A program made the translations under genes and the position numbers. Below, piece after piece: positions 12,736-60,078 of a stretch of 64,000 nt of DNA. This DNA comes from Minutocellus sp. GHC0000111. Lineage: Eukaryota. The DNA lies in assembly GCA_977018835.1 (NCBI GenBank), contig OZ361256.1, positions 3,162,001-3,226,000 on the forward strand, given 5' to 3'. The notes beneath the pieces are model-generated. The model saw only the letters and a list, made by a program, of their open reading frames with translations, was not told where the DNA came from and did not search any database. Position 1 is the first letter of the stretch; the number at the start of each line of letters is the position of its first letter.

Positions 12736-12886
12736 TCTCGGCAGTCCAGAGGCATGCTGTCCATGCTGCTAGCCTGTATGTAAACAGGTCGGACCCCTAC
12801 ACATGCTGTTAACAACTAAGCCGACACATGTAACAACAGCAGTTCCCACATTATTAGGAATTCCTACACAATTCCTGCTACTTACG

Positions 12887-13162
12887 ATGATTGGAAAGGA
12901 GCGAAGTGCCAAGCTCCAGAAGCTTGTTGAGCAAGGCAAATGGAGTGAGGTGAACGCCCTCATCAAAAGTGACCACGATCAGCTTCTTGTTGCCAGTTCC
13001 TCGCTTGAGACGCTGCCGGTGCATGGTGCCGTGCGGAAAGCAGCTCCTCTCAAAGTGGTCAAGCGGATGGTCCAGGCTGCTCCCGACGCGCTTCGCCACA
13101 TGGACAAGATTGGTCGCATCCCATTGCACCATGTGTCCTCACGGCCGAACCACGCGCGTTGA
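12887..13162 (+). pseudogene. Degenerate ankyrin-repeat-like fragment
   Basis: ETLPVHGAVRKAAPLKVVKRMVQAAPDAL..DKIGRIPLHH resembles algal ankyrin repeats (G.LPLH). It is short and truncated, and lies in a TpA-depleted island. Confidence 0.55.
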
Positions 13163-13760
13163 CCATGATCGGCGGTCTCGTCGATTGCTTGTTGAGTTGC
13201 GACAGCAGCACCAGCAAGGTGAGAGACGACGTCGATGGCAACCTTCCTCGTGCTGTCCGTCTGAACGGCATGTGTCTTCGTCGAGGTGAGCAATCTGATC
13301 ATGACCGTCCACGTCGTTGTTGTTGGCAATGTCGCTGTCGGCATCGCAGCCGTCGTGGTGTTCCTCTTCGTCATTGTTGTAGCTGCCGGAACTGCCTTCT
13401 TCCTCGTCCGGTTCGCTTCGCACGGGAGGAGTGAGAGGTCACCCTTCGGGATCGCACGGAGTCAATCCTTCCGGCGTCTCAGAGTCGGGCTCTACGTCTT
13501 GGCACACTGGAGGTGGCTGCCATCGATCTCGCATTCTTCGCACTGCGTGTTGTGGTGGAGTGATGTGTCGTGACCGGGGCAGTCATCGTTGGTCGTGTCG
13601 TCCATTGGCACTGCCTCCTCTTGCCAGTCGTTGCCGAGCTCACCCTCGTCGTCTGGGACGCAATCACCACACTCATCGGCGTCATCCCAGTGGTCGCATG
13701 CGTCCTCGGCTCCCCGCACACATGGTCCTCGGGAACATCCTCCCCTGACCACACATCTTC
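13139..13760 (-). pseudogene. Degenerate acidic low-complexity ORF remnant
   Basis: Broken ORFs 13492-13752 and 13139-13423 are D/E-rich with regularly placed C/H (EDACDHWDDADECGDCVPDD). Confidence 0.45.
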
Positions 13761-14197
13761 AATGTAACGGTCGTCGACGAACACATTCGCACGACGAATG
13801 TCAATCAGAAATCGTCGATTTCGGGCCGATTTTGACCGTTCGAGCTTTGAGTTTTGCTCGAAATCCTTTTTTTGCAGCAAAAAGGTTGATTCTCGTGTAC
13901 CGTGCGTAGAGAGTTTTGGTACAAAACTACCCACCCTACCAACAGATACGCAGGTTCCGGGGCATTTCCTGGGGAAAATCGCTCCCCATACACCTCAATT
14001 TCACTAGCAGCTCCGTGTTATTTTTTTTAGCCAATGTCGCACACAGTGTTGTTACCGCGTCTCAGGAGGCAACTTGCCGTTGTGGCGTTGCTTGGCGGGC
14101 CCGCCACGCCTGTCCGTCAACCGCCTATCATCGTCGTCGGCGTAAGGCAACCAAAATACCATTGGTACAAGAGGCAGCCGACTGCACCGCCAGTGCC

Positions 14198-22558: not shown

Positions 22559-23053
22559 ATAGATTTGTTAGTACCGCTGGAAATCGATGGTATCTCAGCC
22601 CGTCATTCGAGCAGGGAATACGGATACTACGAGCAATTGGGAGGTTACAGGATTGGCCCTGAATATCACTACGAATAAGAAAGAAGTAATTTGCACGGTG
22701 AATTGCCTTGGCCCTAATGATTTTACTCTCAAGACGACAATTTGCTAAACGTAGATTCTACTTGTGCATGTAGAAATAGCATCTAGTCTACGTAAACGTT
22801 TCTTAAATCATGTACTTGTATTAGCTAGATCTAAAATACTTATATAATAACGACCCTGACGCATTTTATATTTTTTGCCCGAGGGCGGTTACATCTAGAT
22901 CTACCCTCCTGCTACATCAAATGGCGATGATCCATTGTCAAATGATGGTGGTAGGCTAGACTACGTAGACGTCTAGCTAGTTAGCTACTGCCTACATACC
23001 TAGCTAGGCATATGTAGACGTACATGTACCATGATAGCTGAATTTAAATGGAT

Positions 23054-24477
23054 CTAATCATCCGACCTAGAAAATACGTTGTAAATATTGCCGCAACTTC
23101 CTGTGCGGTACTTGCCTTTGCCTCTGGCACCCGTGTCACCAAATGCACCCTTTGTCACTAAAGCCAAGTCACTATCATACAAAACCATCCAGTCCATTAT
23201 GGACTGCTTCATCACGTCATGACTGAATAAACCCACAGCCTTACCATTTTCTTTTCTGTGAAGTTTTTTTTCAATGAATTCCTTTGTGCAGGCAGAGACG
23301 ACCTTATGACCGCTAGTTGTTGCGTTATTTGATAAGTACTTTGCCAGCTCGACATCGTCTGATACCAACCACCACACTTTAATTTGTGTGTAGGATGCGA
23401 GGCAAATGTTCAACAATTCGGAAAACCGCTCCCTGCTTATTTTCAGCCTTCGGATGTCACCGACTCTCGTCCGAAGGTGGATGCCACCATAATGTGTCGT
23501 GTTTACGACACGTTCTCGTCGCTCATTGTGCAAATACTGGCTCAAGACGGTTGGCTGGTACATTGCATTTTGGAGGTGGGTTAAAAACTGATCGTTGGGG
23601 CAGTTCCCAATTCAATCTGGCGGAATTTCGCTTCGGCCGTTTGTAATGTGACTCCAAGCAACCCCGTAATTGGGACTTAGCAATATTTTGTACCGGGTGG
23701 TAGCATTCAAAGCACCCCAATCTTGATAAGCAGAGTCCCAATTCTCTGTCTTTGTCAAAGGCAGCACATGTTCATAATGTATGTATTTATCAAAAACGTG
23801 GTGCCCGGGAAAGTTTCCAGGCAATTTTGTCACTGCGTCTTCTATGGTTGGTATGTGCTGCTCAACGGCGGCCGTATCCCAGTTGTAGGAGCCAATGTTG
23901 ATGAACGATCTCCACGTATAATAGGGATCACGAGGTCCGTAGTCGACAATGCAGGGCCGGCCTAGCGCGGTCGCAAAGTAGCAGGTTTTAACGCTTTGTT
24001 GGATCGGCCTGCCAAAGCCAGAGCCCGCGTGTAAAGCGTAGTGGTACACGGGTGCAGACACGTTGCAGTCTGGATTGTGACGAAAACAGTCGTTAGTACT
24101 GTGCACCTTGACCATGATAGCGGAACACCGCTCAGCGTCCGATTGGGGAGTCGATTTGATCAGTTTGCCAGCAGACCAATCGACCTCGGGGTCGGCGGCT
24201 GCCCCAACACCACCAACTTTGTCAACGTATGCGTGCGCGGAGCCACCTTCTTGATGGATGTCGGGTGATTCACGCTTGCTGTTGCTTCTACTGCTGAGTA
24301 GGCAACCTCGACGAGTCTCTTCTTCGCGTAGCAGCTTTGTGACCACGGCTTCTTCTAACAGGAATGCCTGCACGCCGAGAAAGGCAAAAAGTGATATCCA
24401 CAGCCCATACGAGTTGGGCGCCGAACAGTCCCATGCGATGGATTTATTTGCTTGCTTGATTCAATTCGTGTCGGCAT
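23054..24477 (-). CDS. Type II membrane glycosyltransferase of the alpha-fucosyltransferase (GT11/23/37-like) fold; frameshifts near 24415 and 23600-23650
   Basis: TM YGLWISLFAFLGVQAFLL. Motifs GSGFGR, GGIHLRT, WLVSDD and IMDWMVLYDSD....GAFG match the three fucosyltransferase-superfamily motifs. Confidence 0.65.
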
Positions 24478-24764
24478 CTGTTTCCACGTTAGTCCTTCTT
24501 CCTCGCTTCTATCTTTCTTCTGGTATCCACGGTACATGTACCGTAGATTTGTGCTTGGGCGCACTTTGTTGCCGTGGTGCTGCCACAATGGCCACCATCC
24601 GGAAAAGATTTGTTTGGCAATTTCCATCGGAGCACGGATTGCATTCTACTTGGTTGCCTTGGTTTGGTGATGGCGCCGCCAATATTGTGTCGCCAATCTT
24701 GGTAGCAAAGGTTCGCAGCCACTGGTGCCGGTGAATGGTCTGCGAACCCTCGTCTCATGGGCTA

Positions 24765-24947
24765 CAGTCCGTTCTCACCTATAGGCCTAAGCAATTGGTA
24801 ATTGCTTAGGCGAGGGCTGAAATTCTGAGCATATTGCTTATTCTAAGAGCTAATTGGTACCTCAATCGCATGTTATTCCTTATTCCAAAATAAGGAATTT
24901 GAGACCTCGGGCCCGAGACTCAATTGCTTATAGGTGAGAACGGACTG
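24765..24947. mobile_element. 183-bp MITE of Tc1/mariner (pogo-like) type with TA target-site duplication
   Basis: Perfect 19-bp TIRs: CAGTCCGTTCTCACCTATA (24765-24783) and TATAGGTGAGAACGGACTG (24929-24947). Flanked by TA at 24763-24764 and 24948-24949. AT-rich non-coding interior with repeated AATTGCTTA motifs. Confidence 0.92.
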
Positions 24948-25439
24948 TACATCTACATGTAAAAAAGAAAATGTTAATAAGTAAAATCTACGTAGACATT
25001 TATCGAACTGTCATCTTGATCTTCCTTCACTCGCCTTTACTCGTAGTGATATTCAGGGCCACCTCTGTAGCCTCAGATGTACCGGCACATGTAACAATAA
25101 CCCATGCCTCTTCCTGGAGCTGCCAAAACAAAATAGCCATTGCGCGCTGAACTCGGCAATCAGCATGCCCCGAGATGAAGAAGGATCCGAGCAAGAAAGC
25201 CTTCTGCCTGTGGATACATAGTAATGTGTCAAACAGTATATTGCATGCCATGTACCGTTACCCATCACACACTTCTTTCAGTGCAAGGAAGGTGCTGCCG
25301 CATCTCATGGGAATGAACTCTGAACATGGAGCGCGCGCCAAACTCGATGACTTTTGACTACTTGTACTAATAGGCCCCTTAGCACAATTATCTAGCAGGT
25401 GCAAAGCATCCATATTATATTTCTTTTTTTCGTCTCAAA

Positions 25440-27531: not shown

Positions 27532-28638
27532 GGTTGGCCGTCGATTGTTAGTGGAAGTGGATGAATTTGTGCAAGTAGTAAGACTTGGATTAGCTGCGTT
27601 TGCAAATGCGTGGCTGCGTCGTGGTATCAAATACAAGTACGAGTATTGATGGGTGCAGCTTTTTGATGGCTGACTTGGAGCGAGATGTGCTGATTGCCAT
27701 CTTTCTCCGCGTCAGAAGGCAAAAGAAGTCAGAGGAAAAACCCGCCACGTCATCGAACTAAAAAGCGGGACCAAGGACATGGACAAATCGGGATCAACGA
27801 TGTGGGAGCATGAAGAAGTCAAAGGAGAGCTTCCAGTCTCAAACAATTTCTTTTTTTTGCATGGGAAAATTTTAACTCGGCAGCAGCACGTGTCAGGAAC
27901 AAGGCGGCCTCGAGCATTGACCTAATCAACTACTTCTGTGACCGACTGTCTCTCTGCAATCAAGACCAGCTGGATGCCGAGCCTCCTCACAAACACAGAG
28001 AGAGAGAGAAAAAAAAACACTCTCGCACAGCAAGTGACAACCGACACCAGGCACCATCGGCGGCAGCAGATGGTTCTCCGCACGACTGCACTCAACAGTG
28101 TGTTAGTAATTAAAGCTATCAAAGGACAGGATCAAAGAAGAAAGAAAGATAGACATGAAGAGCAGTTGCTCTCTCGAACAACACAACAAAGAAGACTTGG
28201 CAAAAAACAACTAATTGCAACAACAACACATGGGGACCCGGAACTAAGTCCGGCGAGGAAACATCTGGTAGAGAAGCGCAAACGCTTGTGCCCAACACCC
28301 GAGGATGGGGCCGCAGCATGCAGGCGACCGAGTGGCACTCCCCTCGACAATGTGGCTGCCATCATGGGTGCTGCCTGCCATCATCAGCACTCTTCTTAGA
28401 GTCCGAACGCCAGAAACTCAAAATGGCTTGATGAGAGATTCATGGATGGCTGATTATGTTTCGATTGGATTGTTTCCTGAGGAGATTTCGACCCGCACGA
28501 CAAGACGATTTTTCCCGAAAAATGCGGCGGTGCGGGCGGCAGAGGGCAAAAAGTCCCAACGCGGTGAAAGTTAAGTCGAAAATTTCATCGCGCCGGCCAG
28601 GCCGTTTCCGCAGTTTTTTGACTTGAGCGACTGGTAGT

Positions 28639-28837
28639 GGAAGAACAGGCGAGATCAAGGTGTTTCAGAGAAATCTTGTAGCAAATGCTAGGCCAAGAGG
28701 CCTCAAGTTCATGCATGTAACTGCAAAAAATCCGTCCAAAGAATGGTTGGATGGAGGAGTCGGACAAAAAAGTGACGCGGAAGAACGGGCGGAGTTCAAG
28801 GTGTTTCAGAGAAATAATGTAGCAAGTAGGCCAAGAG
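28639..28837. repeat. Imperfect ~60-bp direct repeat with 140-bp period
   Basis: GGAAGAAC.GGCG..TCAAGGTGTTTCAGAGAAAT..TGTAGCAA..TAGGCCAAGAG at 28639-28699 and 28779-28837. Confidence 0.85.
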
Positions 28838-29078
28838 TCAAAAAATCGGCATGCTAGTACCTAGGCCTAGGCACGTTCGCGCGCGTGCATGCGGCCGATT
28901 CTAGGCCGGGATTGTGCACAAAGAGAACACACAAAGAGAACACGACCGGCCTCACGCAGGCCTGACGCGGCCTTGGACGCTACTACGTAGAAGAGTGTGG
29001 GTGGTGCATCATCAAGCCATCTCCTAATTCAGTCCACAAAAGTCAAAAGCAAGCAAAAAACAATTCAGAGAAGACGAC

Positions 29079-29600
29079 ATGAGCATGGAATCCAGCAACC
29101 AAGAGGCCAACAAGGTTGGCAATGACGGCATCAACATTGATGATGCCGCTGCTGTTGCCGACGGCAACGGCAACGGCAACGATGCACAAGAAAGAGCCAG
29201 CCAGCGACCTGGCAGCAGCAGCAGCGACGAAGTCAACGCATCATTGCCATCCTCAAAGAGGCCAAAAAATTGCCATTCACACTTTCACCGGGGCAAGAAT
29301 GCCGCCGCACCCGTCGACTTCTCCGGCCTGCCCGTCGTTGCCTACTACGCCAATCTCATGGATGCAGACGACGACGAATCTCCCAACCGCGAGGAGGATA
29401 CCGGCTGCTCCTGTCGCCGGTCGCGACGAGCTGGCCCCGTTAGACGACGACGCCCACGCAACCAGCCGGGCGACGAAGAAGAAGCGTTTTCCGATGTCTT
29501 CGCACCCAAGGCCAAGGAACTGCACGTCCTCGAATTTGCGACGAAACTGCTGAGCATCATCGACGCCGCAGATGCCGTCAGTGATGAAGAGGCGACATGA
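29079..29600 (+). pseudogene. Hypothetical ORF in TpA-depleted repeat-like region
   Basis: 173-aa ORF with coding-like composition. KNCHSHFHRG and GCSCRR suggest Tyr>Cys/His decay. The 3' end is tandemly duplicated. Confidence 0.4.
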
Positions 29601-29787
29601 ATAGATCAGATCTGTCCGCAACAATTCTGCAATTCAATGCGCTAAGTCAGACCAAGGAACTGCACTCTCTCGCCTTCGCGACGGAACTGCTGAGCATCAT
29701 CGACGCCGCAATTGCCATCAGTGATGAAGAGGCGACGTGAGTAGATCTGATCTGTCCGCAACAATTCTGCAATTCAATGCGCTAAGT
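29512..29787. repeat. Diverged tandem duplication, 140-bp period
   Basis: CCAAGGAACTGCAC...CAATTCAATGCGCTAAGT at 29512-29647 and 29652-29787. Confidence 0.93.
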
Positions 29788-30432: not shown

Positions 30433-31357
30433 CTACAGGTCGAGGGCCAACTTGTAGATGAAGATGTCTTCCGGAAGCAGGCGCTTGGTTTCTTCGTCGA
30501 CGCCATCAACGTCAAATCCTCGAACAAGAATGCCACGTTCTTTCGTTGCTTTGAAGAAATCATCTTCCACTGCTGGTATCCTGGGCTCATGGCTGAGCCA
30601 AATGTCAACGACGCAGTCCCCTCGGTCTTGAGTGCGTGTATAGTCCGCCGTTTCACTTTGATGCTTCAACATCACCTCATGTATCTGCAAGAGCCGTGTA
30701 AGCACCAGAGTTGGACGGAAAGATTAGATCACTCCCAAGCACAATATCAAATGGAACGCCCGTCCTGGCCTTGATCAGCTTCTGTATAGCATCCCCACTC
30801 CATGACAACTCTGCTACCTCTACTCGTCCGCCGGTCACTTCTGCATTTCTGTCGACATTCCTTCTCAGCAATGGCAGTGCAATGTCTCGCTCAGTCACAA
30901 CAACGTTGGCGCCCATTGCTGCCAGAGCCATCCCAACCAATCCGACGCCAGCACCCAGTTCCATCACATGTTTGTCAGAAAGATCGGTATCGGCATAGTG
31001 GTAGGTTAGAAAGTTTGTAAGTGCGAGGGAGCTATCCCAGAGGGTGGCGTCATTGCCACCAGCGAGGGAACCGGTGGGATCTTCCAGGAGGGTGAGTCGC
31101 CGAGTTGTTCCAGACGAACCGCATCTTATTTCAACGATTCGTTCAATCAAGTGGTCTTGAGATGTTGTATCGACACTGTTGTCACCGTCATTAGCGGACG
31201 AGTTTTCCATGCTCCTCGACATACATGTACCATCAGATGGAGGTGGCGGTGCCGGCGCCGACGAAACTTCTACCGGCGTCGTTGTTTCTGACACATCCCA
31301 AGCGATGCCCCCGCGTCTCTCCTCTCTTAGACGTTTCATCAACGCGAATGCGTTCAT
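30433..31357 (-). CDS. METTL21/Efm-type (Methyltransf_16) protein-lysine methyltransferase; frameshift near 30680
   Basis: Motifs LWDSSLAL, VMELGAGVGLVG, VVTER, ELSW and DIVLGSDLIF. The C-terminus (WLSHEPR..EDDFF) is in ORF 30433-30705. Confidence 0.85.
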
Positions 31358-31444: not shown

Positions 31445-31523
31445 AGGTAAGCATGGTCCCGGTAATGAACTTCATTACCAGATTGGCCGGGAACAGCCCA
31501 ACATCGTTACAAAACCCAGTTCG
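31445..31523 (+). repeat. 79-bp dispersed direct repeat, copy 1 (probable transposon end)
   Basis: AGGTAAGCATGGTCCCGGTAATGAACTTCATTACC...AAAACCCAGTTCG, with one mismatch to the copy at 33203-33281. Confidence 0.93.
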
Positions 31524-33202
31524 CAAGTTCGCATCTGCGAGTCAGCCGATCCATTTTGAACATAAAAAATGTTTGAAAATGAAAACATATATAAGCCGGC
31601 CGGACATGAACGGACAAGATATGAACTTCTTGTAAATGAAGTTATCATTACCCGAGGAAGCTGCTAGCATTTTTGGCTTGCTTTGGCACGCATCTTACGG
31701 GGTGTCAGAGTTCGCATCGCGCCGGCCCAGCCTGTTGAAAAATGCATAGAGAACTCTCTGGAACCGCGAGTACGAGTCGAGCGATCTTTGACGCGGATGC
31801 GATGATGCCTTCATTCGACACCCACATCGATGGATGGCATCTTGCGCTCGCCGCCGCAACAGACATCTTGATTCAAAATGAACATGTAGTTGCTCGTGCC
31901 ACCGCATGGGCCGCTGCATCACCCCGCGTAATTTTCTTCGTCACATGCCAGAGCCGTGGCGGTTTGTGCCGCAGCAATCTGCATCCTGTGTGCCAGGCTC
32001 AGATGGAGCACGACATGAACATCGACGACGTGCCGGCGATGATGCTGTGTTCGAATTGCCTCTGCCGAGCTACAGGGGATAAGTGGAACGACGATGAAGC
32101 GGCCGGAATCCTCCAGGAGGCTCAAGGTGGCATCACGGATGCTGGATCTGCTGGAATTCTGGCTGAAGCAATAACGACACACGGAGCATGGAGAAACGAT
32201 CGCACCTTCAACATGTACCTGAGTGACTAATTGAGAAACATGATGGCCATGCACGCAGTATTTGATTGGATTAGATATGTAAATACATAAAGATGCATAT
32301 TTGAATTCATGAATGCATGTAAAAATATATTAGATCTAGATCTACTGGTACTTGCTTTGAATCTGTTATTACATGTATTGTTATTATTTATTATTCTACT
32401 GTACATAGCATGTAAAATAGCACATTAACAAATAGATATTCAGCATGTACAACATGCTTGGTCGGATGGAATACGGTAGACCATCATGCAAGTCATCCTC
32501 AAGATGCGGTCTACCGAACCACGCAAACAGGCACAAAGCGACGACGCTACATTTGCTGTTGCTGGTGCATTCGTCCTCGGCTATCAACCTCGAATATGCG
32601 CAAGACAATCTGCCACAGCCGCAGACACAAATCCATTTTTGTCGAGCGCGAGACTCTTGCCGACACTTGTGCTTTGCGCCGCTGCATATCAAAATCAAAT
32701 GATGCACATAAAAGTAGGCGTTCCACGGCGGCGGCCGACGATGTGTGTGGATCGCCCACTCCACGTTGGCAGCGCCAGTGACATGTGCATTCGCCTTCGA
32801 TCGTTTCCGCACCTCAGCAGTGCATTTTGCTCGCTTCGACGGCTCCCGAACGAGAATCGCGCGCGGCAGATGACCCGCCTGTTGTGAGTAGCCGAGGAGG
32901 ACGAGGAAGGAGCTACCGCGTGTTTAGTCACGAGTCGAGGCGGCGAACCTTCGCCGTATGGCAAGCGCTGCGCAAGAATCTTGCAGCAAACTTAGCATAT
33001 ATCGTGGTCAGAGATCTGCTTGCTTCCTTTTTGTGTGTGTTTGTTCTGGTTGACGCACCGGCGGCCTGTCAGAAGGCGCCGCAAAGCCGGCCATTGTAGC
33101 GGCCGGATTTTGAGACTGAGATTTGAAAGTGCTCTTGGTAATACCATGACGGGGGTCTTTGGTGCTGTAGTCAACATCATTACCAGAGGGGGTGATAACT
33201 AC

Positions 33203-33281
33203 AGGTAAGCATGGTCCCGGTAATGAACTTCATTACCAGATTGGCCGGGAACAGCCCAACATCATTACAAAACCCAGTTCG
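33203..33281 (+). repeat. 79-bp dispersed direct repeat, copy 2
   Basis: Near-identical to 31445-31523. Confidence 0.93.
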
Positions 33282-33821
33282 ATGGTGCATGTGTCATTTA
33301 TTGGGGGGGGGGGGGCTGTCGTGGATGTTTCGCCGGATTTCGGGATGATGTCATCCAATTTCCCCAGCACAGCAAGATGTCTCGAGACACTCCCGCACCA
33401 AGGTGCTCCCGTGCCGTGTGTTGTTCATGGCGCCCCGTTTCAGATTGATGTTTCATTGACGCGTCGGGGAAACCATGCTGACAGGCTGAACTCCTCTATC
33501 CCGCCAAACTCGGGCGCACACGAGAACACAAGAAGAGCCAGATTGGCAGAGTGCCAGTTGTGGTAAAAGGCGCATTGGCGAGGTGCTGTGCAATCTTTCA
33601 CTGTTTGTTTGTGCATCGAGTGATCTTCACTCGGGACAGATCCACCATCTCCACTCCAACAGCACTCTGATCGAATCGATTCGATCGAAGATGCTACGCC
33701 ACACAAGATCCTTTCCAGAGCGACATCAACCTCCTCGCGCGCTCTCTCTTCATCGCGCGCCGCACAGCCAAAAACACACAAGGCACACAAGCAGAATCCA
33801 AACTCGACAAGTGTTCCAACC

Positions 33822-35099
33822 ATGGTGATTTCACATTCCTCCTCCGAAGGCAGTCTCTACCAAGACGAATCTTCTACCTCCAAAAGATCTTCCTCCAGAC
33901 GCACAAGGAACGCTCACCGTTCCTTCGATGATCATGTTTGTGATGGCGACAGCATCAATTCTTCCGCCGACGTCACCGATGACGACGATGACTTTAGGCC
34001 TTCGTCCAAAACAAGTGCTGGTCGCACGAGGAGATCCACAGTTTCTTCTTCTAAAAGGAACACCAAGAAGAACATGGCCCCATCTTCCACCATCACCTCT
34101 CCCAAGGGGCAGGCCAACGGTGTCACCGAGACATTTCCTGTCAAGCTCCACAGGATGCTCGAGGGCAACGCTGCCAATGGGTTGGAACATGTCGCCTCGT
34201 GGCAGCCACACGGCCGATGCTTCATCGTTCACAAGCAGCAAGACTTTGTCGACTTGGTCATGCCAGATTATTTCGCGCAGTCCAAGTGCCCATCCTTTCA
34301 GCGCCAACTGAATCTACACGGATTCAAACGTGTCACCAAGGGACCAGACCGCAATGGACATCATCACCCCAGCTTCCTTCGAGGACATCCCGAGCTGTCC
34401 GACACCATGGTCCGGATGAAGGTCAAGGGCACTGGCGTTCGGAGGCCGACCTGTCCCGACGAGGAGCCCGACTTCTACAAACATCCGGATCTTCCTGCCG
34501 CAGGCTATGATGTCAAGCCCAGTTCTAAGACCAAGACCAAGACGTCCAAGAAGTCTACCAAGCAGCAGCCCAAACTTCGCCGCTCAGGGCCTGGTCTCAA
34601 GCTCATCAAGGCCAGTGGAACCGGTAGAGGCAAGGTCTTATCCATGAAGCATTCCAACGATGCTGTGGAAGAGAAGGAGAAGGACCAGCGCACCTACCAC
34701 TGTTCACCCAACCGCATTGTCACGCCTCCAATCTCTCCAGAGGCCTACGGCCGTCCTCAGGTAGACATAATGGACGTCCTCGACAATGCGCTTCTCAATG
34801 GTTCTACCGACGATGAAGTGCTGCTAGCCACAGCCGGCAGATCCATCTGTCCTTTCCTGAGCCTCCACTTACCGGTGCCGCATCCGCCCAGCTACACAAC
34901 AATCAGCAGTTGGATGGTGCCGATCACAACAAAATGGAGTTCGAGGCTTGGCCCACATCGGCCACGACCTCAACACGCATCACTGCAGTCTCGGAACCGG
35001 ATCCCGATGTCTGTTTCTTCTTTGGAAGACCTTTCCACTACCTCGAAGCCATGCACGCCTAGAAAACAAGGGCGAGGCATGAATCCACTTACAGATTAG
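33822..35099 (+). pseudogene. Heat shock transcription factor (HSF DNA-binding domain), hypermutated
   Basis: FPVKLHRML...SWQPHGRCFIVH...YF.QSKCPSFQRQLNLHGFKR..GPD..GHHHPSFLRG. Positions normally Tyr are Cys/His, and the 3' part looks frameshifted. Confidence 0.88.
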
Positions 35100-35251
35100 A
35101 GTCAACTGGGGGGCAACACATCGTGTAAATGCGCCCACATTATTCGATAAGCACATAAACACAGTTCCAAACAACGGCACTAGACTGTGCAGCATCGGTG
35201 ATTCGATTTGTCTATTTTAAGTAGCAAATAATTTCATTTCTCTCGAAGAAT

Positions 35252-36976
35252 CTAAGTTATCTCCCTCATTTGCATGCCCGGAGACCCGACTCCTCCCTTG
35301 TTGTCTGTCCACTCGTCATCTTCATAATCGTCATCAAATCGCAACTCCGTCGCATAGCCATTGACTCTTTGCACGTCCAATTGTGGGAGCGGGGTCGACT
35401 TGATTCCAAACATGCGCTTAAACCAAGAAGGCTTGGGTCCCAATTGTTGCTCTCCCATATCATAAGAGTCGTCATCGTTTTCATTCTCATCGCCCTCTCC
35501 AGCACCACATGCAATGCCATCGTCAGGACCAAATTCGCTCGAACTCCCGGACGGCGAAACTTCGGATTCATCATTGGGCAACTTGAGCATGGCAAGGCCC
35601 GTCAGAAACCAAAATACAATGGCACTGATTGGACTGGATGATCCTTCAGCAACCTCGCAGTCTCTGTAAATCTGTCCATAAGTCTCCTCCATTCGCTTAT
35701 TGCCACACATTCCCGCCTGAAATATTAGTAGCGTCAACCCTTCGAAAGCAGAGCAAAGGATAAGTGCGACGGTGACTGCATGCTTCAGACCTCTGCCCTT
35801 GAACTTTCTTCTGCTCCCGTCGCTGCTTTCAATGACCCGAACTTTGATAACTCCCATCCATAAAATAACCACGGCCACAAATCCCACAGAAACGGCGATG
35901 ATGCCAAATGCCCTTGCGCAATTGAACATAGGATCAAGCCAAAAGATCATCCCCTCCTCCACATCAAGCATGTGATACGAACAAGTCGTCAAGCGCTCTT
36001 CCTCTGATGCGATGAAGGACACATCGTAATCTGTGCTGGCATGATCCTCGAGCTTGGTCGAATAGCTCCACAGTCCAAATGTTAGCCTAATCACACCGTC
36101 GCCGTCTTCATCTCCTACTTTCGAGGCATCTGCAAGAAATCGTTCCCCATCTATCTCACCGTCTTTGGCAGGCACCGTCGCATTTGCACTGCTGCCGCCG
36201 TCCAAATATTCCAAATGCTTCTCTTCATCGACGATGGCAACAATCGTGGCCAAATCACACAGGAACAGTGTGCCCAAGCTCAACCCAAAGGCTTTGGTTA
36301 CCAATGTTGACGGCAGTAACCGCCAGAAGATGGCCGGTCCCTCCCTCCTCGCAATATCTACTAAGCTAAGGAACGGACACATGAAGGCCATGAGGGCATC
36401 CCGCTTGACATTGCGCTGACCACCACCGCTACTGCCGGTACTTCGTGCCGACGGGGATCGCATCTCTTCTGGGTGTGGCAATGACGCCTCGGCCCCCACC
36501 GCTGCAAATTTTATTCCACCTGTTTTGCTTCTCGGACTTAGCTCTCGTCGCTCTTCTACCACGGCGACGTCGTTTTCATCACCGCCAAACCCTCCCAGGG
36601 CCGACCGCAGTGTCTCCAACCCACTCTTCCTGCTGCTGTTGCTGTGACTGCCGCTGCTGGCATGGCTGTGGACACTAGGACTTGACACCACACGCCTTGG
36701 ACTTAGGTCCAGCGTTTCATTGTCACATGTGTCGTTTTCGTCATCTGTACCGATAGTGTACTGCTGCCGCTTCCGCTGCCGGCGGCACCGCTCGGCATTG
36801 CTTCTTCCCGATTGAGACGATGCTCTGCTGGCATTGTCGTCGTCTTCATCTCCAATGGTGAAGGACGACGACGGCGGTGACGACCGCGGCGATAATCGTG
36901 GAGAAGAACGAGACGGACGATCCGGATCTCGGGTCGGCACGAGGCTCTTTCGCGCATAGTTCGTCTTCCGGGACAT
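35252..36976 (-). CDS. Four-TM membrane protein (claudin-like topology) with long Ser/Arg-rich N-terminus
   Basis: Intact 574-aa ORF with four hydrophobic helices, an FGLW motif and paired cysteines in the loops. Confidence 0.65.
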   Translation of the reverse strand: MSRKTNYARKSLVPTRDPDRPSRSSPRLSPRSSPPSSSFTIGDEDDDNASRASSQSGRSNAERCRRQRKRQQYTIGTDDENDTCDNETLDLSPRRVVSSPSVHSHASSGSHSNSSRKSGLETLRSALGGFGGDENDVAVVEERRELSPRSKTGGIKFAAVGAEASLPHPEEMRSPSARSTGSSGGGQRNVKRDALMAFMCPFLSLVDIARREGPAIFWRLLPSTLVTKAFGLSLGTLFLCDLATIVAIVDEEKHLEYLDGGSSANATVPAKDGEIDGERFLADASKVGDEDGDGVIRLTFGLWSYSTKLEDHASTDYDVSFIASEEERLTTCSYHMLDVEEGMIFWLDPMFNCARAFGIIAVSVGFVAVVILWMGVIKVRVIESSDGSRRKFKGRGLKHAVTVALILCSAFEGLTLLIFQAGMCGNKRMEETYGQIYRDCEVAEGSSSPISAIVFWFLTGLAMLKLPNDESEVSPSGSSSEFGPDDGIACGAGEGDENENDDDSYDMGEQQLGPKPSWFKRMFGIKSTPLPQLDVQRVNGYATELRFDDDYEDDEWTDNKGGVGSPGMQMREIT

Positions 36977-37489
36977 GGCTGGCCGACGGCACGTGGGAAT
37001 TTTTACTATGTGCCTGCTTCCCTCAAAAGTTCCACTTGTCCAGCATTTATTTGCACAATGTGTGCTACAGCAAGCGCCTGCACAAGTCGCCCCTCTTGAG
37101 CAGCTCTAGCAACTGTGCTCTTGACTTGGAACAAAGTGCGACTTTGGCTTGGCCTCTTGCATGCGCTCCGCCGGGGCCCCTCTGATCAAACGGAGTGCGT
37201 CATCTTTACTTTGTGCGTTGAAATCGAGCTGTCTGTCTTTTTTGGTGGGGGCGACGGGGTTTCTTTGCCGTCATCAAAGCATCATAACTTGTTCCCGCAA
37301 GCCTCTGCTCTAGCTCTGCCTGCTCTCTCGGCCGGCCGACGCCGGACCGATCATCATGGTCCACAATGACGCAGTAGAGAGGCTCTCGCGCCTTTGCAAA
37401 GCATGCAACACGGCACTACGTAGTAGTCTACCTATTTCAATTGTTGCGTAGCTAGAGGGTGACCCTCACTGATCCAAACGACAGTCTCA

Positions 37490-39015
37490 ATGACCACGTC
37501 CAGTCCAAAATCAACACAACATGAGCCGCCGCCGCCCTCACCCAACGACCACCACAATGCCGACGCTCGACCTGCACAACCATCGCCTGACAACGGCCAT
37601 CAGTTCCACCACGTCGACTCGTTCAACGCCACAATGCCTCCTGTTCCTACGCCAAGTCATCCTCTGGCGGCGGCATTGGCAATGCCGGCAAGCCCGGCAC
37701 GTGCAGCTGCACCGTCCACTGCATCATCGTCACCGGGTCCGGTTCGCACTCGTCCGACGGGCCCGTCCTCCGCTCGGCGATCGACAAGCTCCTCCAGCAC
37801 CCATCACATCACCCCGCACAGCGGGAGGGGCAGCTTCACGGTCGACGCCAACAGCGGCCACGAGCTGGTGTGTCACGACGAGGGACGGACAGCAAGGTCG
37901 TCGTGGCGAGGAGCCGGGCGGCGGCGCTGGGGCAGGAGGAGTGGCCGGACCTGCCTTGCACTTCTGGGGGTGGTGCAGGGAGTGTGAAGCGAATGTCATC
38001 CACCGCCTCTGCGGCGGCGAGGAGGCACGATCCCAATGCATGCGTGGGTGCCGATGGTCGGCAGCCGCTTTCGTTCGTCGGTGGTGGCAGCAGGAGCAAC
38101 AGCAGGAACATGGGGAGCCGTCAGTCCAGCACTGCCAGCAATTCCAATGTCGGCGGCGGTGGGGGTGCACCTGCCGCACAAGATCAGCGAGTGAGGCCAA
38201 ACAACCAAGGGGAACAAAACGACGAGGACGAGGAGGCATTGGACGTGTTCCCCCTCCCCCGGGAGGTGGCGGCCGACGATGCCGTCCTATCACGTGTCAA
38301 GCAGATGAGCGCTTCCGAGGCGGCCCAGCGACGGTCGCAGGCCATCCGTGAGCGCAATGCGTTCCAGAGGGCAATGGAACAGAGCGCTGAGGACGAGGCC
38401 AACCGGCGGCAGGAACTGGAGGGGGCCGAGGCCGAGCAGATGGCGCAGGCCCTTCGTCTCAGTCGGGAGGAGAGTCTGCGACTCGAGATGGAGGGCACCC
38501 GCAGCAGCGGCACGTCGATCGAAGAGATGGACGACAACGAGTTTGACCGGTTGGTGGAGGCCAGTGTCCGAGAAGATGAGGAACGGCACCAACGAGGAGA
38601 GGATCGGGAGCAGGAAGAACTGGAGCGGGCGCTGCAGCTGAGCCAACAGATGGAGCACAATGCCTCGAACGGTGGTAATGTCGACAACGACGAGGAGGAT
38701 GAGGAATTGCAGAAAGCATTGGCATTGTCGAAACAGGAGAGTCGACGAAGTAGCGCCATCGGCAGCACAGATGATAACGAAGAGGATGACATAAAGCGAG
38801 CGATGGAGGAGAGTCTGGCTATGGCATCAGAGGACAGCGCGGTGGGCCTGGACGGGATCTCGGGTGCCGGCCACCTCGACGACGACGAGGCGGAGATGAT
38901 CCGTCAGGCTATGGAGCTGAGTGTCAGGGCCGAGGAGGAGCGAAAGATGTTGCATGGTGCGTTAGGGGATAATGATACGGGCCAGAGGGGCGGCGTGTGT
39001 TCTGGGCATGTGTGA
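37490..39015 (+). pseudogene. Multi-UIM (ubiquitin-interacting motif) protein; Tyr-free and frameshifted near 37885, possibly a hypermutated copy
   Basis: UIM-like repeats EQMAQALRLSREE, EELERALQLS, EELQKALALSKQE, DDIKRAMEESL and EMIRQAMELS. ORFs 37490-37987 and 37870-39015. Confidence 0.7.
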
Positions 39016-39272
39016 CGAATGGTTGTTACATGTGTCAGTCATCGTTTGACACAGCTTGGTGCAAATTCTGGGCATTCTGGGACATGTAGGCCTACCTGGT
39101 TATAAGGACAACGGTGGGGGCTTATTGCTCTCTAGGTAGCTAGTCCCTCTTGTGTGTCCCTTTTTTTTCTTCTTGAGGTCGGCTTTTAGATGTGATATTT
39201 TCGGTGTGCTGATGCAGACTGGAGAACAGAATAGGGGTGTGCATGTAGGATAAAATCGACAAGTTAGCTTGG

Positions 39273-40248
39273 TCAAATAATGGGGCTGATTTTGACATCA
39301 TCAGCCAACTTATCCTCAATTTTCTCGAGGTACTTGTAGGCCTCCTTCCGGCACTTGTGGTCAAGTTTACAGTTCTTCGATGCTGCCTTGAGCCACTTTT
39401 CGGCCTTTCTGTAGTTCCTTTTCACGCCGTGGCTTCCATCGTAGCGCCAGACACCAATTCTGTATGCAGCAATGCCACTGCCCTCCTTGGCAGCTTTTTC
39501 TAATAGTTCCATCCCTCCCTTAGGATCATGGGGGGTCCCTAGCCCTTTGACTTGGCATTCGCCGGCTTTTTCCATTCCTCGTAGATGGGAGTGCTCATCG
39601 GCAGCCTTCTTGTACCACAGATACGACTGGCAAGGTTCGTCACCAGAGAGCATCCGAGCAAGTTCTACCATTGCATCAGGATTATTATCAGCCTTTGCTG
39701 CCGCGGTAAGGTCAAATATCTTTTTGGCGTTCACCTTGCTTTTCTTGTCGCGGTGAAGGTCAGCGTGGTGGTCTTTGATGAGTTTTTTTGAAATCATCAT
39801 CAATCTCCTTTTCTGGGTGGACAGCATGTCTACGAATGATTTTGACCATTTCTTTTGTAGTGTCATCAGCAAATGCCACAGCCTTCTTGTCTGTGGCAGA
39901 GGCGGAAGGAGAACTCTTGAGCTCTTAGAGTTCTCCGCATTCTTGTCGTTCCATTCTTTCTTTCTTCTCGTCATCAAAGATGACTACAACTGGGTCGACG
40001 AAGAGTTTTTTTGTTCGTTTGTTGACGAAAAGTTCGAGAGACTTCTCAAGGTAAAGGCTCATCTTAACACACCTATCAGAATTATCACGTTCGTCATCAT
40101 CTGCTGAGATAACTGCGCGTTTTACGTTGTTGGCTGGCGCGGTGGCGAAAGTGGCGATGTTGTTCTCCGTTTTGAGCCGCTTGCTCTGATCATTGATCAG
40201 AACAGGACGAAATACCAGCACGCTTTTTGGTGCTGTTCGGGGAGTCAT
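39273..40248 (-). CDS. Sel1-like repeat protein, possibly with a degenerate U-box-like N-terminal part; frameshift near 39950
   Basis: DAMVELA..WYKKAAD, GECQVKGLG..D...GMELLEKAA and AAYRIG..YDG..GV..N...AEKWLKAA; KKLFVDPVV upstream. Confidence 0.75.
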
Positions 40249-57484: not shown

Positions 57485-60078
57485 TTATACATTTCCTCTT
57501 ACCAATGAAAACAAGCCGGGAATGTCGATGATCCTGAGGCCGGACTTATTTTCGCCACTCATGATGATTTGTGCCGCCTGGTATTTCTTCCCGCTCTGGA
57601 CGCTACGGCCATCATCGAATTGACCTCCAACAACAAGATAGTTCGTTTTTCCACTGACGGCGCCTCGGACCAAGCCACCGCAGTCTTTGATGAGCTTTTC
57701 GGCAGCAGAGCGGGAGTATCCCACAGGCTCACCTGTGAGCACAAATGCAATGCCTTTGAGGGCATTTTCTTTGAGAGCGGGAGGTGCGGTTGAAGTGGAT
57801 GAATCGTTGGGAGATCGGAAGGAAGGCGCCGGCACGCCAGCGGGCTGGACATCTTCTGGCTCGTCCCATCGGTTAATTGTGGATAAGTCGTTGGGGTTTG
57901 CATAAAATGCAAGTGCTCGTTTGTCGGCCCGGACAAGACTAGGCTGAAAGTTCCTTAATTCAAGGCCAGATTCATTGGTAGCTCTACTCAAAGCAACATA
58001 CGCCTGAGCTTCGGTGAACACCCCTTTTAAGTCGGCTTTCACATAATCGAGTGATAGTCCCTGTGATTTGTGCACAGTAATAGCCCACGCAAGCTTCAGA
58101 GGGACGGCCTTGCGGACGCAAGTTCCCAGACCGACGATTCTGGATTCAAATCGCACCGGACGGATGACTCGTCGGCGACCGCTGCTGAATTGAACGATGG
58201 GATAGCTTTGGTCGTCATCGTCGGAATCGTCGTCCTCATAATCAATATCACACTCATCACCACTTTTTCCGCCGCCGGTATTTGTAAAACCAATAATCTT
58301 TCCTCGTGAGCCATTGACGAGGCGATTCTTGTGGTCGTCCGTCTGTTCGTTTTTAATCAACATGACTTGGGCACCTTTCTTGAGATCCAATTCAGCCTCG
58401 GCAAGACATTGGCGGTAGAATCCATTTCGAAGAAGCTGACTTTGGGCCCAGTGAGGAGCGTCGTCTTCAGGCTCGGCAAAATCTTCTGCTTCATACGTCA
58501 CTTTTTTGCCGGCAAGTTTGTTCAGATGCATGTTATTTTCAGCTGTGACGTCCTTGTTGGTAGCGTAGAGCTTTGTGGCCTCAATACCATCCTTGTTGGG
58601 CAGAAGGGGACGATTGCAGCGCTCGAGAAATTTGAGGGATTCGGGTGACACCTTCCCGAAGCGGATTTCGTGTAGCACCGAGATGAAATCGCTATTCTTC
58701 TGACGAAAGACCTGATCCAACTGAATAACCTCGAATCCGGCATTTTTCCAGGCTTTGGACTGGAAGGCGAAGCCTCGATCTTGGTGCAAATCAGCAGCAG
58801 ACTTGCCTTGGCGGGCAAGCGCATTTTGAGCAGCCTCCACCTTATACTTGCTCTTGGGTATAGGTGGTAACTGCAACATGTCACCACAAGCAATGAGTTG
58901 GATGTTGCCGAATGGCTGGCTGCTCGGTGTGCCGCGGACTTTGCAAACGACGTTGGACAAGCGGTCGAGGAATTCACCACTAATCATGCTTACTCTGCAA
59001 TAATGACGAGTGAGTGTGGGCAGAGGTTAGATGAATGCAATGCAATACATACAACACACATACAGAAGCACAGTTTGTAAATCTGCCACACTTACTCTTC
59101 AATCACCATCACATCCAGATGACGCCAGTTCTTCTTTTTGTCCCAAACCTTCTCAAAATCTTTGGCAGTTTCCGGAACGCCACAGCCGGCGAAGGAGTGA
59201 ATTGTTTGGCCACCCACGGAGATGGCGGTAGGACCAGTTGGAGCCACAGCCACAAATTTGTTCGGATTCGACCTGTATTTGGTCTTGAGATGGTGCATAA
59301 TATGGCTCAACACGACGCTCTTTCCCGTGCCGGCAGGGCCGGTGATGAAGATGTTATCACCCCTTTTGGCGGATTCGATGGCCTTGGATTGGAGAGCATT
59401 GGGAGTTTTGAAGAGAGAGCCAAAGCCAACTCCAGGTCCACCACCCTTTGTACCAGGACGGCCGACAGCCTCCAGAGGCGAGGCTATGCCCTGCGCGGCC
59501 TTTCCAAGGCCCTTACCGGCCGTGTGGCCCATTTTGGACATCATTTTATGAGCGAATCTGGAGTAGGATGCCGACGCCGACGCTGATGAAGATGCATGCA
59601 CATCACCTGCAGCCTCTTCATCGGACGAATCGCATAGATCCACCGGCTCGGATGGAGCAGTAGCTGAACCCGCAGTAGAATTGGTACGAAATGCCGAGGG
59701 CTTCCGATCGTCGTCCTCATACTTTGCTCTCTTGTTGCTGTTGGCAGTGCTGCCGGTCGTGTTGACGTCGTCGCTCTCCTGGGAGCACAAATCGACGATA
59801 CCTGCCGACGCACCGTGTGATGACGATGCAGCACCCGCAGCGGCCACTGCGGCACCAAACCTGCCCGTATCCGACGAGGCATGCATGTACGTGCCAGCGT
59901 TGGCACCACTATTACCCTCCTTCACCAAAAAACCTTGCGCCTCTGTCCGCGTTTTGAAGGACTTGTACCTGGCGCCCGGAAAGCCGGTGACCTGGGCGGA
60001 GCATTCGTCCCACGTATCGTAGATGGCCGGCCCGGAACGACCCCTGGCGACGGCGTAGTGCTTGCGTTTGCCGGCCAT
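57485..60078 (-). CDS. PIF1: Pif1-family helicase fused to RNase H1 N-terminal hybrid-binding domain, G-patch and C-terminal BRCT; two exons (60078-59096, 58994-57485)
   Basis: HBD HYAVARGR..AIYDTWDEC..QVTGFPGARYKSF; G-patch KMMSKMG..GKGLGK..QGIASPL; helicase FITGPAGTGKS, TIHSFAG, CGDMLQLPP, VFRQ, PLKLAWAITVHKSQGLSL, QAYVALSR; BRCT FVLTG...SR..AEKLIKDCGG.V..AVSGKTNYLVVG. Confidence 0.92.
58995..59095 (-). other. 101-nt spliceosomal intron in PIF1
   Basis: GTAAGT donor, CTAAC branch point and TTGCAG acceptor. Splicing restores VMVIEE-VSMISGEF. Confidence 0.9.

Follow-up and report, generated by a model that had tools for sequence, protein, structure and literature searches.

At the centre of the window, by which we mean the whole 64,000-nucleotide stretch of diatom DNA that we analysed, lies a block in which three host genes, encoding an HSF-type transcription factor, a 574-amino-acid protein and a UIM-repeat protein, are covered by a single tract of altered sequence next to a multicopy element. 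The features on which our analysis draws are as follows.

22641-25074: element of 2.4 kb with 38-bp terminal inverted repeats and ORFs at 23054-24115.
31447..33204, plus strand: multicopy transposon-like element of 1758 bp that starts GT and ends AG, recognised from depth and repeat structure.
33205..33281, plus strand: truncated second copy of that element, its first 77 bases, in tandem, recognised from a 79-bp direct repeat.
33282..38974 (about 33.2-39.0 kb, ~5.7 kb), no strand: hypermutated tract, TA>TG/CA with RTAY preferred, defined by RTAY density and comparison with the sister copy.
33290..34500, no strand: island of the first-pass annotation, comprising the HSF upstream region and the 5′ half of the gene, assessed by TA and RTAY counts.
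33822..35062, plus strand: HSF-type transcription factor gene, mutated copy; its sister protein P0001 (413 aa) is intact.
34134..34415, plus strand: HSF DNA-binding domain (PF00447, E 1.8e-19, 70.5 bits against a cut-off of 22).
34191, 34288 and 34317, plus strand: domain changes I124V, Y156C and Y166H, from run and protein comparison.
34332, 34359 and 34386, plus strand: domain changes I171V, Y180H and Y189H, from run and protein comparison.
34818..34819, plus strand: one base absent relative to the sister protein, a candidate frameshift (real change or assembly error).
35252..36976, minus strand: gene for a 574-aa protein with hydrophobic stretches; sister protein P0123.
37993..39015, plus strand: UIM-repeat protein gene, which together with its upstream region is free of RTAY up to 38974.

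The first-pass annotation had reported about 10 TpA steps in ~1.2 kb, and a direct count bore this out, finding 11 TA steps left in the 1211 bp of 33290-34500, where the sister copy has 31. The observed/expected ratio for TA was 0.17 in this island, compared with a window median of 0.58, which puts it in the lowest 0.5% of windows of equal size. The island is therefore real, but its extent had been drawn too short, as the tract reaches about 38975. Across the left, middle and right parts of the tract, RTAY occurs at 0.0, 6.1 and 0.0 per kb, versus 10.4 per kb outside it; none remains in the left 2.2 kb or the right 2.2 kb, and the loss in the middle is partial, with nine sites surviving in 35457-36760. 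The corresponding RTAY-free gaps run from 33141 to 35457 and from 36758 to 38975, and a gap of 2316 without RTAY was reached in none of 5000 shuffles that held TA positions fixed. Relative to the reconstructed sister copy, which is only partly known right of 35150, the window had lost 34 of 44 RTAY sites (left 18/18, middle 11/20, right 5/6).

Two smaller RTAY-free stretches lie elsewhere in the window. The intergenic, TA-poor stretch at 27643-28857, whose flanking genes have sister proteins on different long contigs, is a candidate second tract at a junction, and 12776-13897, whose broken reading frames encode many His and Cys, is a candidate older tract; one piece of the latter resembles what we take to be an ankyrin-like repeat, and the fragments at 12.8-13.9 kb had no Pfam match at E 0.1. 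At a uniform rate the chance of these gaps is about 3e-6 and 8e-6, respectively, each uncorrected. With local TA density held fixed they lose significance, as 64% of shuffles gave a gap of at least 1121, and no sister DNA was seen for either stretch; both were left out of the tract count.

To define the substitution spectrum we included every one of the 31 single-base differences between the copies over 33285-35150. Of these, 25 were A:T>G:C in the window, 3 were G:C>A:T and 3 were transversions. TA steps held 22 of the 25 A:T>G:C changes, compared with a background in which 106 of 879 A/T bases (12%) lie in TA (p = 1e-17), and AA/TT steps and TC steps held one of the 25 each. Right of 35150, the 40 listed rows out of 88 contained 21 differences, 18 of them A:T>G:C and 14 at TA. 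Enrichment of TA>TG/CA relative to the closest intact copy, which had been proposed as a check, was thus found, and the target, although confirmed as TA, proved narrower than all TA: 34 of the 36 TA changes read T-A-Y on the A strand, which is R-T-A on the T strand, with T-A-C at 11 of the 36 changed sites. Within 33290-34500, losses amounted to 13/13 for RTAY, 6/15 for sites with the motif on one strand and, by transition, 0/3 for YTAR, such that palindromic RTAY exceeded the expectation for two independent targets derived from the one-strand sites (Fisher p = 8e-4). By strand, the changes split 24:21 over 45 sites (36 from sequencing runs, 6 inferred from proteins and 3 from a loose contig end), and they were interleaved, with 21 strand runs versus 23.4 expected (P = 0.28). 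Both the spectrum and the strand split agree with the earlier description of a localized process that is symmetric between strands, specific for TA and, in turning A:T into G:C, runs counter to RIP.

We then asked which copy had changed. When the first 330 residues of the HSF were compared with 10 outgroup HSFs, 10 of the 11 sites favoured the sister residue and the remaining one was split; Y38, I124, Y156, Y166, I171, Y180 and Y221 were common to all 10 outgroups. In the 574-aa protein, compared with up to 8 outgroups, the majority sided with the sister at 12 of 13 TA-loss sites and one site was uninformative; two of these sites rest on a single outgroup, and M172 was decided 4 to 2. At M507, a site unconnected with TA, the outgroups agreed with the window. 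Judged by these residues, it is the window that has changed at nearly every site covered by the outgroups. TA losses were concentrated in the tract: against sister proteins on long contigs, 24 of its 31 residue differences were TA losses in the window and none was the reverse, whereas eleven sister proteins from outside the tract (3506 residues, with stretches below 70% local identity dropped) had 3 TA losses among 59 differences and 4 in reverse (p = 1e-12). Sister proteins were found for part of the genes, in 19 of 30 look-ups.

The HSF domain, which also matches solved HSF1, HSF2 and HSF4, carries the clearest consequences. The codons that had been singled out, TGC at 34287, CAC at 34317 and CAT CAT at 34359-34364, are present as described and lie inside the PF00447 domain, and the orthologues have Tyr at the replaced sites rather than a native Cys or His. 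The CAT CAT pair had been counted as two changes; the first (34359) did change, but the second His of GHHHP is native, as the sister and the nearest orthologues read GYHHP and no run variant occurs at 34362. Further changes of the same type, absent from the earlier list, were found at 33834, 33933, 34017, 34191, 34332, 34386 and 34482. Y166 corresponds to the Tyr of RQLNxYGF in the solved HSF4, and all 120 homologues listed out of 910 matches have Tyr at this position and at that of Y180. Loss of HSF function is predicted from Y166H and Y180H. The base absent at 34818..34819 was present in all 3 covering runs, and its absence shifts the frame of the C-terminal 80 residues. The named HSF homologues were all from diatoms, the top-ranked among the matches listed being from Extubocellulus (59%), and no relative emerged when metagenome contigs were scanned with the intact HSF.

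In the 574-aa gene, whose product had no Pfam match, 13 of the 18 residue differences from sister P0123 were TA losses in the window and none was the opposite. The UIM protein showed no differences from P0125 and P0126 and so gives no polarity. Around its gene, TA-restoring variants were found in sequencing runs at 37414, 37492, 37872, 37984 and 38866, and for this part of the tract, which has no outgroup, we infer from the rest of the tract that the window is derived. Contigs of RNA runs from two studies covering 37380-39500 have the window's TA-lost letters around the UIM gene. Because of these contigs, the mutated copy there is probably still transcribed; they are uninformative on expression level and strand.

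The first-pass annotation had recognised that raw reads showing TA would count against it. Our search of public sequencing runs listed 24 runs, of which 20, from 7 studies, contained part of the region, and we compared six in detail. Over 34258-34416, each of the runs X1, X2 and X3 yielded a pair of 159-bp contigs, of which one matches the window exactly and the other has TA intact in cis at 34288, 34317, 34332, 34359 and 34386. The window and intact versions had depths of 121.9 and 118.9 in X1, 64.6 and 73.5 in X2, and 8.89 and 5.79 in X3, and over the same interval X13 had the same letters as the window. The Illumina RNA run X6 had the window letters at the TA-lost sites 33603, 33607 and 33611 (at a depth of only 3.5), and X6 and X9 both had them at 37492, 37872, 37984 and 38866. 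The assembly may have been built from X1 and X2, so these two do not count as independent of it; X3, X13, X6 and X9 come from three other studies. The runs therefore contain the mutated letters beside an intact version, and we regard it as virtually certain that the signature is real. Because the HSF and the 574-aa protein each have one partner, on one contig, as genes outside the tract do, the mutated and intact copies of the block are considerably likelier to be alleles than paralogues.

The left edge of the tract coincides with the end of the truncated element copy. This end is the junction at which the sister copy runs into other sequence and at which the tract starts; loose contig ends lie at 33280 and 33294, and comparison with the loose end revealed three additional TA>TG changes at 33287, 33291 and 33293. 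The sister flank beyond 33280 had no match above chance within the window, and no listed run contig crosses the junction at 33281. The direct repeat of 79 bp pairs 31445-31523 with 33203-33281, and over 32000-33254 the element has a depth about 15x that of neighbouring genes, while at 33203 it adjoins several different flanks. It belongs to no recognised family, its ORFs had no Pfam match at E 0.1, one of them had no Atlas match, and there was no Rfam match across 27-40 kb. It is intron-like in beginning GTAAG and finishing CTACAG, with repeated CATTACC-like motifs near both ends, and the multicopy sequence (31447-33281) is present in contigs of RNA runs. Two further loci suggested by a 22-base piece of the element, one of them a match of just 24 bases, were both dismissed as chance.

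None of these repeats shows the erasure seen in the tract. The multicopy element retains 23 RTAY (13.1 per kb) and has a single TA loss, at 33164; the inverted-repeat element at 22641-25074 is TA-rich, with 15.6 RTAY per kb; and a 140-bp tandem pair at 29509-29787 has no TA pattern. The repeats in the window are not the targets. A role in defence against duplicated DNA, which had been suggested earlier, has so far found no support, given that two mobile-like elements are spared and that the intact partner of the block occurs at 1:1 depth, like an allele.

The sister proteins of the window's genes fall on four long contigs.

Window 5.8-27.3 kb: sister proteins on a long contig of size 653,968.
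Window 29.1-31.4 kb: sister proteins on a long contig of size 1,879,304.
HSF and 574-aa gene: sister proteins on a long contig of size 701,987.
Window 42.5-60 kb: sister proteins on a long contig of size 2,746,326.

This distribution over four contigs within 64 kb (5794-60078) suggests heavily rearranged haplotypes, and from a block map drawn on contig sizes alone, presuming that the contigs belong to one assembly, we infer that the haplotype has probably been rearranged, with the tract as one block, although misassembly is a possibility. Frame shifts relative to sister proteins occur in seven genes (at 17100, 27180, 30700-30774, 34818, 42175, 44250 and 47000) and may reflect indel errors in the assembly, introns or haplotype decay. 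On the minus strand at 57485-60078, two adjacent ORFs look by eye like what we presume to be halves of a PIF1-type helicase, with parts that we take to be RNase H1-N-like, G-patch-like and BRCT-like.

A dedicated local process probably lies behind the tract, the evidence for which comes from one locus. Because the changes are almost purely transitions, at an A with T on its 5′ side and a pyrimidine on its 3′ side, adenine deamination fits them best, hypoxanthine being read as G. The reading that we prefer, that a putative adenine deaminase acting at T-A-pyrimidine in locally marked DNA rewrote one copy of the block, has as a whole a little less than an even chance of being correct, and adenine chemistry by itself about an even one. 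More tentatively, we propose that diatoms may possess a natural DNA adenine deaminase that turns RTAY into RTGY or RCAY in chromatin flagged at transposon ends or in rearranged, unpaired DNA. The block would have been marked, likely because it lies at a transposon end and a rearrangement junction, and the putative enzyme would convert the adenine of T-A-pyrimidine to hypoxanthine on either strand. Because hypoxanthine templates C, a hit would become fixed as TA>TG and a hit on the opposite strand as TA>CA; a fixed hit would destroy the motif, and repeated rounds would drive RTAY to zero without double changes. Targeting would follow a local chromatin state spreading about 2 kb inward from each end of the block, a spreading mark suggested by the RTAY losses, which are complete on the left (18/18), partial in the middle (11/20) and leave no site on the right. 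The T-A-Y motif matches the preference of TadA-derived editors, whose activity, in the part of the source available to us, is highest on an A that follows T and precedes C and is lower when another A comes next (PMC8989541). Against this explanation, the adjoining element itself is nearly untouched, and a simple single-strand deaminase would need an extra preference because of the RTAY excess over one-strand sites. Plain ApT 6mA was also considered and is unlikely, as 11 of the 36 sites are T-A-C; 6mA is described as having no obvious mutagenic effect in the portion we saw of one report (PMC12695648).

Each T-A-Y reads as R-T-A on the complementary strand, so the motif fits damage to either base, and adenine and thymine chemistry cannot be told apart from sequence alone. 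We consider it rather unlikely that thymine was the damaged base, with a TET/JBP-type dioxygenase oxidising the T of R-T-A to 5-hydroxymethyluracil (5hmU) and then 5-formyluracil, and with this silencing mark turning into C, much as TpG arises from methyl-CpG. Such a route would accord with enrichment between purines and with the T>C miscoding of 5-formyluracil; a purine precedes the changed T at 34 of the 36 sites and an A follows it at every one, and a symmetric heritable mark would account for the extra weight of palindromic RTAY. On the other hand, 5hmU mostly pairs with A, and TC, which is also preferred in dinoflagellates, is barely changed here (1/25 over 33285-35150). Dinoflagellate 5hmU, as described in the accessible part of the source, is a product of TET/JBP enzymes that favours TA and TC and shows enrichment in repeats (PMC11572971), whereas our literature search, which saw its sources in part, found no 5hmU or thymine dioxygenase in diatoms; the parts of PMC4738411 and PMC9423628 available to us contained no statement of T>C miscoding.

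A separate alternative bears on what set off the changes and would suit either chemistry: the block is or was a duplicate, and homology pairing provoked the changes as in RIP. The 1:1 depth also fits two paralogues, and in X1 one contig beyond 39.2 kb has a depth of 135, near that of one copy. However, the HSF and the 574-aa protein each match exactly one partner, located on a single long contig, and genes outside the tract show the same arrangement; the partner copy shows no TA losses relative to the window in 31 residue differences; and the ~15-copy element, the 2.4-kb inverted-repeat element and the 140-bp tandem pair all lack erasure. We therefore view duplication as a fairly doubtful trigger.

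Error-prone synthesis, by a polymerase eta-like enzyme with its WA motif during the break repair that moved the block, could produce a kataegis-like cluster. Polymerase eta favours A>G at TA, and the tract starts at the junction and is strongest near both ends. The scarcity of changes at AA/TT steps (1/25) and of transversions (3/31), the loss of all 18 RTAY in the left part and the absence of strand coordination make this explanation improbable. Three further readings are still less probable: that the polarity is reversed and ordinary CA>TA RIP struck the sister copy, that GC-biased gene conversion was at work, or that edited RNA was copied back into the genome. The UIM part of the tract has no outgroup to oppose reversal, but for the HSF and 574-aa genes motif, strand and outgroups refute all three, since the outgroups side with the sister at 10 of 11 HSF sites and most 574-aa sites, gene conversion has no dinucleotide target, and RNA editing predicts one strand whereas the changes lie on both, in upstream regions and in three genes of two orientations. 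An artefact of base calling or assembly at modified bases in the window's source is in practice refuted, for although several window frameshifts suggest indel errors and the records of X1, X2, X3 and X13 give no library type, both versions form separate contigs in three runs of two studies and the Illumina RNA runs X6 and X9, of two more studies, agree with the window letters.

If adenine deamination were responsible, the tract would represent a eukaryotic genome-defence mutator acting on A:T pairs, a natural counterpart of engineered adenine base editors, and such an editor could spill over into ordinary genes and ruin one of their alleles. Whether the chemistry is that of adenine or of thymine, so clean a tract of A:T>G:C changes at RTAY points towards a DNA-modifying enzyme that is new. 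Since ordinary host genes are within its reach, the process may influence GC content and the divergence of alleles in diatoms, and RTAY erasure would escape RIP indices. The locus is also unusually testable, since mutated and intact versions co-occur at similar depth in samples of two studies.

Among known systems, kataegis and somatic hypermutation by polymerase eta produce clusters near breakpoints and A>G at TA, but those clusters are strand-coordinated or spread over WA with transversions, and the tract is neither (runs test P = 0.28; AA/TT 1/25). ADAR-type editing would be confined to one strand and one transcript, whereas here both strands and three genes in two orientations are affected. 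The tract resembles dinoflagellate TET/JBP 5hmU in involving the T of TA, in an alga, and in the tie of that mark to transposon silencing, yet in the available part of the source 5hmU is described as a mark rather than a mutator, extends to TC and is not shown in diatoms (PMC11572971); of the two contexts, T in TA is changed here and TC accounts for 1/25, in what is a mutation pattern rather than a modification map. It resembles TadA/ADAT enzymes and adenine base editors in the A>G change with T before and C after the A (PMC8989541, seen in part), and 34 of the 36 TA changes have T before and a pyrimidine after. Natural members of that family act on tRNA and their DNA activity is engineered, and no natural DNA adenine deaminase was known according to the portion of a 2023 review that we could consult (PMC10661471). 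RIP, as described in the part available to us, depends on RID and changes C to T at CA within repeats (PMC12730594). Like RIP in Neurospora and other ascomycetes, the tract consists of dense, kilobase-scale transitions on both strands (24:21 over about 5.7 kb) at one dinucleotide, TA, and can disable genes. Unlike RIP, it is A:T>G:C at RTAY, in a diatom, in genes with one intact partner at 1:1 depth, and with nearby repeats spared, although a past or homozygous duplication is possible. Because the direction of change is wrong (25 A:T>G:C versus 3 G:C>A:T, by outgroup polarity), the tract is not RIP. Our search found no published description of TpA hypermutation in diatoms, among sources seen in part and mostly outside subscription journals. 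To our knowledge, the targeted genomic hypermutators (RIP, APOBEC/AID and methyl-CpG decay) all start from cytosine. The mutator signature described here changes A:T to G:C; it is real, local and aimed at RTAY, and a putative enzyme would lie behind it.
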